Shown: piece by piece, positions 1,420 through 47,078 of the stretch
Numbering within the stretch: position 1 is the first letter of the stretch
How the letters are laid out: each line of letters opens with the position of its first letter
IMG/VR virus record: IMGVR_UViG_2574179724_000002
Direction: 5' to 3' (one strand)
Source: a virus
Length of the DNA stretch: 64,000 bases
Position numbers and translations under genes: made by a program
The notes under the pieces: model-generated
Seen by the model: only the letters and a program-made list of their open reading frames with translations
What the model was told of the DNA's origin: nothing
Database searches by the model: none

Positions 1420-3367
1420 TTGGAATTTATTATTTTAAATGATAATAAGCAACCAATTCATAAATTCAAAGACCCTAGTCAAACTAAGACAGTCCAAGAA
1501 GTTAAAGACTTTGATAATTATGCAGTAGTCGTACCTAAAGGTTATATTGTGCTTGACTTTGACACGACTGACGATGCTGAAATTATGTTTAACATTGTTA
1601 AAGAACTAAAGTTGAAAAGCAGGGTCTATAAAACTAAACGAGGTTATCATTTCTGGTTTAAATCCAGTATTCAGTTCAAGAACTTCGTTAAAGCTAGGCT
1701 TGCTTGTGGTTTATATTCTGACTGCCGTTCAGGTGTTAATGGCGATAAGCGATCATATGTTGTTTTAAAGAAAAATGGAACCAAACGTCCAGTTGTTAAT
1801 AAAGTCAGCCTAAAAGACTTAGACGAAGTACCGGTTTTTCTAAGACCAGTTTCAACACCTGCTGACAAATTTAATTTTAAAGAAATGTCAAATGGTGATG
1901 GTCGGAATCAACAACTATTTAGTTACATTGTCTATCTACAGGGGCAAGGATTTAAAAAAGATGAAATCAAAGATACTATTCAAGTAATTAATGATTTTGT
2001 TTTTGATGATCCACTTGGTGAGCATGAGTTAAGTCAGATTTTGCGTGATGAATCATTTAAACCTGAAAAGGAAGTCAAAAAAATGACTTCTAAGAAAATT
2101 AGTGGGTTTAAGCATAACGTTTTTGGCAATGAATTAATCAAACAATATCATATTTTAACAGTCAATAATCAACTTTATGTTTATGATGATGGTTTTTATC
2201 AGCAAGATGACCGAATCATTGAACGTAAGATGATTGAAATGTTTCCTGGTATCAAACAGACCCAAAGAAATGAAGTTCTAGCCTACATCAGAATTGAAAC
2301 CCATAAGAATCCAGCAGATATTAAGTTGAATCCGTATATCATAAATTTAAAAAATACACGATTAGATGTTAGGACTGGTGAAAAGCTTGATTTTGATTAC
2401 AAACAAACTGAATTTGACCGAATCCCAGTGGTTTATGATCCTGAAGCTTATAATTCTGATGTTGATCATATGCTTGATAAGGTTTTTGCATATGCTTGAT
2501 AAGGTTTTTGTAAATGATCAAGAGATTCGAGAATTATTCGAGGAAATGCTTGGATATTGTTTCATTAAAAACACCAGGTATCGGAAAGGTTTTATGTTTG
2601 TAGGTGGTGGCCACAATGGAAAATCAACTATCTTAGATATGATTAAGAACTTCTTAGGTAAGAGAAACTACTCAAGTATTGGATTAGACGAATTAGCTGA
2701 TAGATTCAAGATTGCTGAATTAGAACATAAATTAGCCAATATCGGTGATGATATCAACAATGTATCTCTCAAGAAAACTGGAACAATCAAAAAGTTGTTT
2801 ACTGGTAATTCAATCACGGTTGAACGAAAAGGCGAGCGACCATTTGAACTAGAACCATATGCAAAAATGATTTTCTCAGCTAATGAGATTCCGCGTTCTT
2901 ATGATAAAACAGAGGGTTTTTACAGCCGCTTAATGTTTATTCCATTCGATGCTGAATTTAGTGCTGATGATGAAGATTATGATCCAAATATTGAAGATAA
3001 GATTACTACCGACAATGCTATGAGTTATCTGTTAAATATCGCTTTAAAAGGTATTCAGCGATTAATGACCAAAGGTGAGTTTACTCAACCGCAACGAGTT
3101 TTAGAAGTCATGAATCAGTATAGGACAGATAACTCAACAACTTTAAGCTGGGTAGCGGACCAAGAAATAACTTTGGAACAAGTTTTAGAAACACCAAGTT
3201 CAGATTTATATTCAGATTTTGCAGATTGGTGTAAACAATCAGGAATCAAAGCTAATAACGTAACTGGTAAAAAGATATTTAACCGAGAATTGATTGATAA
3301 ATTTGATTTAGAAAGACGTCAGAAACAGCATGGTGATGGTAAGCGATACTTTGTTGTTGCTCTTTAA
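1420..3367 (+). pseudogene. Primase-polymerase / P4-D5-family SF3 helicase, split by frameshift
   Basis: N-part (1420-2499) prim-pol with TKRGYHFWF and PriCT-like GDGRNQQLF; C-part with Walker A GGGHNGKST; 22-bp tandem duplication at the break. Confidence 0.8.
2467..2510 (+). repeat. Perfect 22-bp tandem duplication CATATGCTTGATAAGGTTTTTG
   Basis: Copies at 2467-2488 and 2489-2510. Confidence 0.97.
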
Positions 3368-3406
3368 CTGTGTCTGCTGTCTATCCAAAACGGAAGGAAT
3401 ATAAAA

Positions 3407-3694
3407 ATGAAACTAAAATTAGGAAAAATTTATAAACAGGTGGATGAAGAAGGATATTGTTACTTTACAAAATATACAGGTGAAGGCGCAATGAGCATGG
3501 TTAAGGGGGGATTTTTACTCATTGGAAACAATCAAATTGTTCAAGTAGTGTGTGAAAAAAATTCAAATCCAGTATCAGTTATAGATGATAAAGATTTCTC
3601 AGAAGGCAATTTTGATGGTGACACCGCGGGTGCTGGATCTTTAGAAGATATTGAACAACTTTTTAAACACAATTATTTGGAGGAAATGAAATGA
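3407..3694 (+). CDS. Hypothetical phage protein
   Basis: RBS GGAAGGA; ATGA overlap with next gene. Confidence 0.7.
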   Translation: MKLKLGKIYKQVDEEGYCYFTKYTGEGAMSMVKGGFLLIGNNQIVQVVCEKNSNPVSVIDDKDFSEGNFDGDTAGAGSLEDIEQLFKHNYLEEMK

Positions 3695-4143
3695 AAATTC
3701 TAGATGCTTGTTGTGGTTCAAGAATGTTTTGGTATTACAAGCAAGAGCCACACACAACCTACATGGATATGCGAAAAAGTTATGAGCAATTAGCTGACGG
3801 ACACATTATCGACGTTAATCCAGATGTCCAAGGAGATTTTAGAGATATGGACTTTGAGGACAATACTTTTGATTTAGTCGTTTTTGATCCACCGCACCTA
3901 ATTTATGCGGGTAAAACATCATGGTTGGCCAAAAAATACGGAGTGTTGCCTAATACGTGGCAAACAACATTGCTAAGAGGTTTTGATGAGTGTCGAAGGG
4001 TTTTAAAGCAAAATGGTGTGTTAATCATGAAATGGAACGAAGACCAGATTAAGACCACTGAAATGCTAAAAGCTATTGCGGCCAGACCTATTTTTGGGGA
4101 TAGGCGTAGCAAAACAAGATGGTTAGTGTTTTTGAAGGAGTGA
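3691..4143 (+). CDS. Small class I SAM-dependent (probably DNA) methyltransferase
   Basis: ILDACCGSRMFW motif I and DLVVFDPPH motif IV. Confidence 0.85.
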   Translation: MKILDACCGSRMFWYYKQEPHTTYMDMRKSYEQLADGHIIDVNPDVQGDFRDMDFEDNTFDLVVFDPPHLIYAGKTSWLAKKYGVLPNTWQTTLLRGFDECRRVLKQNGVLIMKWNEDQIKTTEMLKAIAARPIFGDRRSKTRWLVFLKE

Positions 4144-46104: not shown

Positions 46105-46518
46105 GTGAAAAGATCAACATTTAATTACATTGCAGACATAATACGTGAATATCCAACATCTGAAATGTACATCAAGAAGCGTGAAGATGAGCTGATAAAC
46201 AGGTTTCAGGAGTTTAAAGATGAAAATGTTGGCGGTGGTCGAGCACAGAATAAAAAAGATGAGGGTGTTGAGTGCATGGCGATTACGCTAGCTGAGGACA
46301 GACGATTAAATAATCTCAAAAGAAATGAAGAAGCTGTTCGGAAAATTTTAGAGTCGTCTGACCCAGTAACGCGAGATATTATCTATGAACTTTACTTAAG
46401 AGAAAACTGCATTTTAACGCTTGAGGGGATTGCGCAAGAAGCTCACCTGTCAGGTACAGCTGTGAAGAAAAGAAGACTAAAATTTTTTGAAAAAGTGGCA
46501 GCAGAGTTGGGTTTATAG
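46105..46518 (+). CDS. ArpU/RinA-family late transcriptional activator
   Basis: ITLAEDRRLNNL, IIYELYL, KKRRLKFFEKVAAELG. Confidence 0.85.
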   Translation: MKRSTFNYIADIIREYPTSEMYIKKREDELINRFQEFKDENVGGGRAQNKKDEGVECMAITLAEDRRLNNLKRNEEAVRKILESSDPVTRDIIYELYLRENCILTLEGIAQEAHLSGTAVKKRRLKFFEKVAAELGL

Positions 46519-46541
46519 TTTCTAGATTAATAGAGTTGATG

Positions 46542-46564
46542 AAAAGTGTCCAAAAAGTGTCCAA
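46542..46564 (+). promoter_or_regulatory. Tandem AAAAGTGTCCAA repeats, probable late-activator site
   Basis: Two overlapping copies just after the activator gene. Confidence 0.55.
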
Positions 46565-46615
46565 TTAGCATTAAATTAAGTGTCAAAATGATAGCATAAG
46601 AAACTTAGGGATGAG

Positions 46616-46985
46616 TTTCCGGGTTATCTCCGATATCAGATCAGCGGTCGATCGAGCCGCTATTTATGTAGTAAATGAGGGACATCCCTCATGAGCTGCT
46701 AACAATCATTTAACGGATACTTGCTATCTGTTAGATACTAACTGACAACCGGGAAAGACCGATAAACACTCGTGTTAGTGTTTATCACTTCTGCAGCTGG
46801 AAGATAAAAACACTCGATTGTAGCGGAAAATACAGTCACTTGCTAGCGTAAACCGCAAAAAATATTTCTTTCTATCGCTAGCAAAAAAGAGAATGACATT
46901 TGATTTCGTCCATCGAAAGAAAATGGTGTTTGGATTGCGAAGTCGGTGAAATTCCGACATACATACTAGTCCGGAATGACATTAA
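46616..46985 (+). ncRNA. Candidate large structured non-coding RNA
   Basis: No plausible ORF; at least ten stems including a long-range one and a possible kissing loop (see findings). Confidence 0.6.
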
Positions 46986-47078
46986 ACTATTATTTTCTCC
47001 CAAAAAATATTTTATCGGTAGCAATCAGTGATGGTTGCTATTTTTGTTGTATAATTTATGAGATAAAATAATAAATTT

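Follow-up and report, generated by a model that had tools for sequence, protein, structure and literature searches.

We find that the 560-nt intergenic gap at positions 46520-47078 of the window (the whole 64,000-nucleotide stretch of viral DNA that was analysed, IMG/VR record IMGVR_UViG_2574179724_000002) harbours a structured + strand RNA of about 450 nt that is new to Rfam. The RNA unit spans approximately 46600-47048 and is flanked by three repeat boxes and a late promoter at its 5' end and by an intrinsic terminator (t1) at its 3' end. A sequence-only reading had already placed a structured + strand RNA directly behind late-activator repeats, and this is borne out by the repeats at 46544-46585, the fold and the covariation described here. 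The extent proposed at the time, 46600-46985 (about 370 nt), marked a real feature; the unit is larger and reaches the terminator at 47017-47048, which had been overlooked. On balance, we consider it probable that the element is a new, narrowly distributed and late-expressed phage ncRNA of temperate Liquorilactobacillus-type phages, carried as an optional cargo that acts in trans. The coordinates of all features are collected in Table 1.

Table 1. Features of the RNA locus, in window coordinates unless a contig is named
Feature	Position	Strand	Basis
Late transcriptional activator gene, RinA/ArpU/Ltr superfamily, 137 aa	46105..46518	+	PHROG matches; homologs with PF05263/DUF722
Direct repeats AAGTGTCC, AAGTGTCC, AAGTGTCA (AAGTGTCM), presumed activator binding sites	46544..46585	+	repeat search
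Extended -10-like TGaTAGCAT and putative transcription start	46589..46606	+	read from sequence
5'-terminal hairpin H0, 8 pairs, loop GGGA	46600..46619	+	RNAfold and RNAalifold
Closing helix, 5' strand (UCCG..UCAG), within invariant CUCCGAUAUCAG	46629..46639	+	RNAalifold
Hairpin HA, 6 pairs, self-complementary loop CGAUCGA (UGAUCGA in L086)	46643..46661	+	pair counts
Part absent from natural short forms (L058-L062, L075-L077)	46647..46940	+	contig comparison
Helix PG (GUAGU/GCUGC), 2x2 internal loop AA/RA and hairpin HB (AUGAGGG/CCCUCAU)	46668..46699	+	pair counts
Hairpin HC, up to 12 pairs	46708..46736	+	84-90% cells paired
Closing helix, 3' strand (CUGA..CGGG), overlaps the earlier AACCGGGAAA	46742..46756	+	RNAalifold
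Perfect 10-pair hairpin, window only, non-conserved	46761..46786	+	changes in relatives
Hairpin H-F, stem GAUUGUA/UACAGUC, conserved loop GCGGAAAA	46816..46837	+	L086 comparison
Hairpin H-G, 9 pairs, 27-nt A/U-rich loop containing CCGC	46840..46884	+	fold
Hairpin GUCGG-N7-CCGAC, in long and short forms	46942..46958	+	100% cells paired, 8 sequences, one G-C to G-U
Intrinsic terminator t1, 11-pair hairpin, GUGA loop, U run	47017..47048	+	terminator scan
tRNA genes behind RinA-type gene	L014 2056-2126; L021 2033-2110; L024 2002-2143; L038 3862-3932 (-)		

The gap lies between the activator gene and a 306-aa ORF (47079-47999). The activator protein matches phrog_36 (9.5e-19) and the Alt-like phrog_2198, and among its database homologs bearing PF05263/DUF722 one is named 'RinA family phage transcriptional activator'; its named relatives come from Liquorilactobacillus and Lentilactobacillus. 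The 306-aa ORF is followed by a 71-aa ORF, an HNH-AAA protein and a Terminase_4 small subunit. With the activator gene upstream and the terminase and HNH genes downstream, the gap is therefore situated at the early/late border of a temperate phage. The G+C content rises to 0.435 at 46600-46799, compared with 0.36-0.39 upstream and 0.26-0.27 downstream, in agreement with the G+C enrichment over the flanks reported in the sequence-only reading. The cargo protein encoded by the 306-aa ORF is a membrane protein of low G+C (25%) for which no Pfam, PHROG or PADLOC match was obtained. Behind it lie a second terminator-like hairpin (48001-48018) and a sigma-70-like, near-consensus promoter (48024-48052), both of which are common to L047, L048 and L050. 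The 71-aa ORF (48070-48285) aligns to phrog_10715 ('hydrolase') over the final third of the profile alone (positions 110-178 of 194) and looks like a remnant.

In HNH-dependent cos phages the cos site is expected in the gap between HNH and terS. A cos site inside the 46520-47078 gap was considered and rejected, the likelier location being the G+C-rich gap between HNH-AAA and terS (49067-49227), which contains G+C-rich blocks such as CCCCCACC and GGGGCGG. The same genome carries a second RinA-type gene in another prophage (G000:C1:250423-250833, locus L037; 72% identical). The 1.7-kb gap behind this gene was discarded as the site of a further RNA, as three reverse-strand ORFs (69, 293 and 137 aa) are found there, and the locus has in common with the window only about 80 nt resembling 46996-47072.

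The three AAGTGTCM repeats are found together at no other place in the window, and in L048 a fourth copy of the box is present. Proteins of the Ltr type bind three direct repeats just behind the ltr gene via their C-terminal part (PMC3753634). We compared boxes and activators in seven phages (the window, L049, L058, L063, L075, L078 and L086) and found that the box sequence varies together with two residues in the C-terminal helix of the activator: GTGTCC boxes accompany activators with ..HLSGTAVKKRRL.. (GT at residues 117-118 and L at 125), and GTAGCC boxes accompany those with ..HLSVAAVKKRRI.. (VA and I), in 7/7 phages. This covariation is a candidate DNA-recognition code for the RinA-type family at these loci. 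An ltr-family gene directly upstream and three repeats matched to the C-terminal specificity region are thus both present, as in Ltr-type late promoters. The locus also resembles described RinA/ArpU/Ltr late promoter regions (PMC3152322, PMC3753634) in having three direct repeats behind the activator gene and HNH, terS and terL downstream. In the described Ltr/RinA phages, however, the promoter lies just upstream of terS, whereas here an RNA of about 450 nt, a terminator and a cargo gene intervene. Relatives with unrelated leaders (L084 and L040) share sequence with the window only up to 46595-46607, and for this reason the start of transcription was placed near 46600, most plausibly at about 46598-46606.

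In the 5' domain (46600-46753), a 5' hairpin is followed by a closing helix that encloses three arms, and the AA/RA internal loop of the domain is conserved. A covariation check on homologs had been suggested earlier, and in this check the domain does covary: 94-95% of 243-261 pair cells are standard pairs, compared with 35-46% in slid controls (3' partners moved by 1-3 columns), and 14-16 pairs change on both sides, compared with 1-6 in the controls, with 0/500 shuffles attaining the observed values, although these statistics overstate independence, since the signal comes from about four lineages only and the sequences were aligned by fitting them to the model. RNAalifold, run without the model structure on the alignment underlying our covariance model R1 (built on 46596-46762), yielded H0, the closing helix, HA, PG with HB, and HC. 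Together with the pair counts, this supports one multistem junction, with the support coming from four lineages only. The alignment contains 40 G-U cells, and 95% of cells pair when read as the + strand, compared with 80% when read as the - strand; because of the forty G-U cells, the structure is specific to the + strand.

The individual helices of this domain behave consistently. In H0, which is present in the short forms as well, 97.9% of cells are paired, and L086 retains the hairpin via C-G to U-G and U-G to C-G changes. HA is paired in 100% of cells, with two both-side changes (A-U to G-C and G-C to A-U), and the PG-HB arm in 98.6%, with 3 pairs altered on both sides. HC shows compatible changes in L049/L078 (A-U to G-U) and in L063 (two), and at its position L086 has a different A/U hairpin instead. 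RNAalifold forms the closing helix by pairing 46629-32 and 46636-39 with 46742-45 and 46750-53, and every change in L063 and L086a is compatible with it. The alternative, 46616-22 with 46749-56, corresponds to the long-range stem TTTCCGGGTT/AACCGGGAAA of the sequence-only reading. This stem has a central G-G clash, can form only if one G is bulged out, which gives 7 pairs, and competes with H0 (46600-46619) as well as with the closing helix preferred by RNAalifold (46629-39 with 46742-53).

With this long-range stem left ambiguous, the stems listed in the sequence-only reading divide into six that hold and five that are either broken in relatives or incompatible with covarying alternatives. 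AGCGG/CCGCT and ATGAGGG/CCCTCAT hold with compensatory changes, and TAACGGATA/TATCTGTTA holds too, whereas ATTTA/TAAAT is excluded by the covarying GUAGU/GCUGC helix. Further downstream, the hairpin stem GATTGTA/TACAGTC with its GCGGAAAA loop is confirmed by a compensatory version in L086, GAUUGG-UGCGGAAAA-CCGGUC, in which a U-A pair becomes G-C and another becomes U-G while the loop is unchanged. The stem TTGCTAGCG/CGCTAGCAA of H-G is present, with one compatible change (46843 C>T) and one that breaks a pair (46841 T>C). At this place L086, the one diverged homolog, forms a large-loop hairpin of 8 pairs that is unrelated to H-G, and the CCGC loop segment, the putative kissing partner of GCGG in the sequence-only reading, is not at the same place there. 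The GTCGG/CCGAC stem is conserved, with a single G-C to G-U change. Its loop varies (UGAAAUU, UCAAAUU, GAACAGA) and lacks the T-loop consensus, and no tRNA call was obtained; TGAAATT, described earlier as T-loop-like, is not a tRNA T-loop. The perfect hairpin GATAAACACT/AGTGTTTATC at 46761-46786 suffers an A-C mismatch through 46783 T>C in most relatives and in the sequencing runs, and half of it (8 bases) is deleted in L063. Likewise, CTTCTG/TGGAAG is broken in L063, GGATTG/TAGTCC in most relatives and TTTCG/CGAAA in L048. That several hairpins which are perfect in the window are broken in relatives counts against our preferred reading. The stretch 46800-46940 is nearly invariant even in the 85%-identical L063, and the structure given for it is a prediction for which L086 provides the only outside comparison.

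The terminator t1 is supported by the comparison, with three compensating stem versions, 98.9% of cells paired and 3 pairs changing on both sides; pairing falls to 80% when it is read as the - strand. At t1 the RNA unit ends on its 3' side and a cargo hotspot has its left border.

The fold energy is in line with a structured RNA. Relative to dinucleotide shuffles, 46600-46985 (-115.1 kcal/mol) gave a z score of -4.7 on the + strand and -2.8 on the - strand, so that the RNA folds better than shuffled controls, a check also proposed at the outset. The approximately 70%-identical homolog L086, folded as a whole, gave z = -8.6. No credible ORF was found in the gap 46520-47078, and coding by its 43-, 48- and 61-aa ORFs was rejected because 7-nt and 1-nt indels occur within every small ORF in relatives. 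A search of the window's own genome for antisense targets or repeats returned nothing beyond chance, the best hit being a 17-mer in an A/T-rich part that is absent from relatives, and neither a target nor a partner protein emerged.

We then turn to known RNA families, of which GOLLD and ROOL had been named as possible relatives. Rfam 15 (4227 families) gave no match at gathering scores over the whole window, and at E <= 10 over 46300-47300 only noise was returned, which scored 16-21 bits and came largely from miRNA and snoRNA models of eukaryotes. Neither ROOL (RF03087; gathering score 99.1 bits) nor GOLLD matched at E <= 10 in 46300-47300, and the homologs L063 and L086 had no Rfam match at E <= 1. 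The ROOL model itself performs well, scoring 110-220 bits on true ROOLs in 3/150 genomes of the bacterial family. Hence, between the two options offered earlier, a GOLLD/ROOL variant or a new class, the latter is the better one for an RNA that is absent from Rfam. ROOL and GOLLD are often found near tRNAs in prophages (PMC5737381), and the setting of the present RNA, in a Lactobacillales prophage and in a slot where relatives carry tRNAs, would suit a very divergent or truncated member of either family. We nevertheless regard such membership as highly improbable, given the silent models, the shorter length of the RNA and a junction and pseudoknot set that is not evidently comparable.

Similarities of a more general kind are nonetheless apparent. 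Like ROOL and GOLLD (PMC5737381; bioRxiv 10.1101/2024.12.08.627333), the element is a large multi-branched ncRNA of a Lactobacillales prophage with no neighbouring partner gene, occupies a slot used by tRNA genes in related phages and is optional within its phage lineage. It also has a self-complementary hairpin loop (GAUC core) that could, in principle, mediate RNA-RNA contacts. Unlike them, it matches no Rfam model, measures about 450 nt rather than about 580 and more than 800, has a far narrower distribution, is fixed directly behind a late promoter and is closed by its own terminator; the three ROOL genes found in 150 genomes of the family do not adjoin a RinA-type gene and are all located outside phage contexts.

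The narrow distribution emerged from every search. Among INPHARED phages no copy of the RNA was detected with blastn (word size 11). A BLAST search of 401 genomes from the family and 15 from the genus likewise yielded no copy of 46600-46985, and matches elsewhere were limited to the promoter and terminator ends. A pattern scan of JGI metagenomes gave 7 matches, all of them chance 19-mers, and five pattern scans of IMG/VR recovered only five contigs (L046-L050), which are 97-100% identical over the gap. Further homologs were reached through exact look-ups of activator homologs, leading to contigs in Logan, JGI and ENA. Of these, L063-L068 are 85% identical to the window RNA, L078 is 97% identical, with two cargo genes placing the element 1.5 kb downstream of the activator gene, and L086 is approximately 70% identical over 46519-46768 and strongly diverged in the rest. 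Five further candidates from the IMG/VR scans (L087, L088 and L093-L095) were rejected as chance matches on the basis of BLAST and model R1. Four public sequencing runs, from sludge and food-fermentation metagenomes, contained mostly near-identical copies, and one diverged contig, in run X7, has a compensated version of hairpin HB. Wastewater 'RNA-Seq' runs containing parts of the RNA only are probably DNA and have no bearing on expression.

Model R1 scored window-type copies at about 204-208 bits, L063 at 178 bits and L086 (610-778) at 137 bits. In L086 it also detected a second module at 1018-1190 (26 bits, E ~1e-4), part of a diverged HA-PG-HB copy at 1018-1242 that lies downstream of the first and within which the contig ends. 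Over the 48 collected loci no copies beyond the window-type, L063 and L086 ones were found, and over 150 genomes of the family R1 returned the window's own genome only. The RNA thus appears to be confined to a narrow group of related phages of one genus.

Such a distribution raises the question of whether the element functions as an RNA at all. It might instead be a mosaic spacer that borders a hotspot of recombination and cargo, in which case the hairpins would be leftovers or DNA-level signals spread by recent exchange among close phage relatives. Absence from the 401 genomes searched by BLAST, the 150 searched with the covariance model, INPHARED and the JGI metagenomes fits this idea, as does a sharp identity step relative to the neighbouring gene: in L049 the gap/RNA block is 88-100% identical, compared with 56-84% for the adjoining activator gene. 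We count this contrast in favour of a conserved RNA, yet conservation beside a diverged activator gene could reflect recent recombination instead of selection. Cargo is moreover swapped exactly at 47048, the core is deleted in some phages and several stems are broken in relatives. Against this stand the compensatory and G-U-preserving changes in four helices, which are specific to the + strand, the conserved internal loop and hairpin loops beside changing stems, the duplication of the module in L086, and the strong fold of this homolog. Furthermore, 40 G-T cells would not be tolerated by DNA cruciforms. We therefore judge a spacer devoid of RNA function to be quite improbable.

The natural variants of the locus are informative about what the RNA is not needed for. 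The short forms run straight from 46523-46646 into 46941-47058, the two parts meeting at GCAGU|CGG. They retain the boxes, H0, ~45 nt at the start, ~100 nt at the end and the terminator, and the entire covarying core is missing. They fall into two diverged lines with differing cargo behind, and the junction suggests that a long form similar to L086 underwent a deletion between short AGU repeats. Since these phages are found without the covarying core, the core is accessory and dispensable for the basic phage cycle; judging from the contigs compared, it is an optional extra and not an essential control element.

What follows t1 differs in nearly every relative. In L047, L048 and L050 another 1.5-kb cassette sits exactly between 47048 and 48001 (L047 6933-8456), with homology ending at 47048, and behind t1 L049 has an unrelated protein of ~300 aa, L084 an N6_N4 methyltransferase (2003-2974) and L075 KwaB/KwaA of the Kiwa system (2695-4130). 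L078 has its cargo (1633-3145) before the boxes rather than behind t1. These replacements indicate that the site just behind t1 is a hotspot for cargo and defence genes. DUF5677 also occurs among the relatives' cargo at the hotspot.

The principal alternative to a trans-acting RNA is that of a cis-acting leader, in which the folded RNA would stay on the polymerase or remodel the nascent transcript and so provide processive antitermination past t1, the hairpin at 48001-48018 and later terminators. The prophage's only activator boxes lie upstream of the RNA, and the order of activator gene, late promoter, leader, terminator, cargo and late genes parallels the Q-PR'-tR' regions of lambdoid phages. 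Because two terminator-like hairpins stand between the boxes and HNH, terS and terL, some form of read-through is needed. In Firmicutes, RNAs of the conAn2 type are long structured leaders capable of antitermination, and the conAn2 regions of Gram-positive conjugative plasmids measure 260-600 nt and are poorly conserved in sequence (PMC8191782). Like conAn2 (PMC8191782), put of HK022 and EAR, the present RNA forms an extended, structured leader at the 5' end of a long operon with internal terminators, and the ~45 nt at its 5' end and ~100 nt at its 3' end are kept in all forms, the short ones included. In contrast to these systems, its covarying core is naturally deletable and it has its own terminator at the end. 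The short forms without the core still have t1, cargo (Kiwa in L075) and late genes downstream, and the core is therefore not needed for read-through. In addition, the sigma-70-like promoter at 48024-48052, behind the second terminator, could alone drive the late genes, the upstream gene is a RinA-family activator, and a ConAn1-like partner is not evident. Proteins of the RinA family are described as activators, not antiterminators (PMC3152322, PMC3753634). We also considered an antiterminator formed from the UAGCAA/UUGCUA core common to H-G and t1 and rejected it, as no co-variation is seen when t1 changes (L048 and L050). Taken together, a cis-acting leader is a possibility that we take seriously but hold to be rather unlikely as the main function. 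By position the RNA is also a late-operon leader, since no further activator boxes are recognisable for the late genes, and the conserved 5' and 3' ends could have a role in cis.

Support for the preferred reading of a stable, trans-acting RNA comes from the core being deletable with the promoter, the ends and t1 kept, and from sister prophages having tRNA genes in this slot. Such genes lie 90-340 nt behind the activator gene, and in its orientation, in prophages from four other species of the family (L014, L021, L024 and L038). The RNA shares with these phage tRNA genes the slot and the orientation behind the activator gene, and presumably also the mode of expression as a stable RNA from the late transcript. 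It is itself no tRNA: ARAGORN predicted 0 tRNA genes in the window, RF00005 gave none at E <= 10, and the UGAAAUU loop is without the T-loop consensus. A further leader was noted in a prophage of another genus (L018 1189-1500, - strand), whose activator is 44% identical and whose repeat boxes read GTGAGCC. This G+C-rich leader of ~220 nt has a fold z score of -6.9 and a strong terminator at its end, gave no Rfam match and contains a hairpin, GUCAGG-UGCAAAU-CCUGAC, that resembles GUCGG-UGAAAUU-CCGAC of the window; it may be an analogous late-leader RNA.

We propose the following course of events. The RinA/Ltr-type activator would switch on the late promoter via the boxes at 46544-46585, and rightward transcription would produce the RNA. 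The transcript would fold into the 5' hairpin, followed by the multi-branched 5' domain (46629-46753) with its three arms and purine internal loop, and in its second half into the invariant GCGGAAAA-loop hairpin, the large-loop hairpin and the GUCGG hairpin, before ending at t1. Once the prophage is induced, the activity of the strong late promoter, combined either with termination at t1 or with processing of transcripts that have run past it, would generate many copies of a stable RNA. The tRNA, ROOL and GOLLD cargo of other prophages follows this logic as well (PMC5737381; bioRxiv 10.1101/2024.12.08.627333). We infer that it accumulates as a discrete species and that the stable folded RNA acts in trans during lytic growth, while polymerases passing t1 would continue to the cargo gene and the packaging genes.

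It is tempting to speculate further, by analogy, that the element is the first representative of a new class of phage RNAs, expressed late and acting as RNA-only assemblies like ROOL and GOLLD. In such assemblies the CGAUCG/GAUC loop of HA and the GCGGAAAA loop would make intermolecular contacts, and the RNA would confer an advantage in lytic growth, e.g., as a decoy against host defence. We deem this extended proposal unlikely. If it were true, structured leaders that occupy this slot in other prophages of the Lactobacillaceae, such as L018, would be functional analogues.

ROOL and GOLLD are abundant and structurally spectacular RNAs without known function, and the RNA described here would be a smaller, independent example. 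For study it offers an activator-dependent promoter, a defined 3' end and natural deletion variants in similar phages, and its expression and effect on phage growth are therefore directly testable in an inducible lysogen of a food bacterium that is harmless. The locus also points to a common plan among the RinA-type phages of lactic acid bacteria: the late promoter is directly followed by stable-RNA cargo, either tRNAs or this RNA, and the RNA's terminator by exchangeable cargo, some of it consisting of defence genes (Kiwa and a methyltransferase), a plan that raises the question of how late transcription crosses these terminators.
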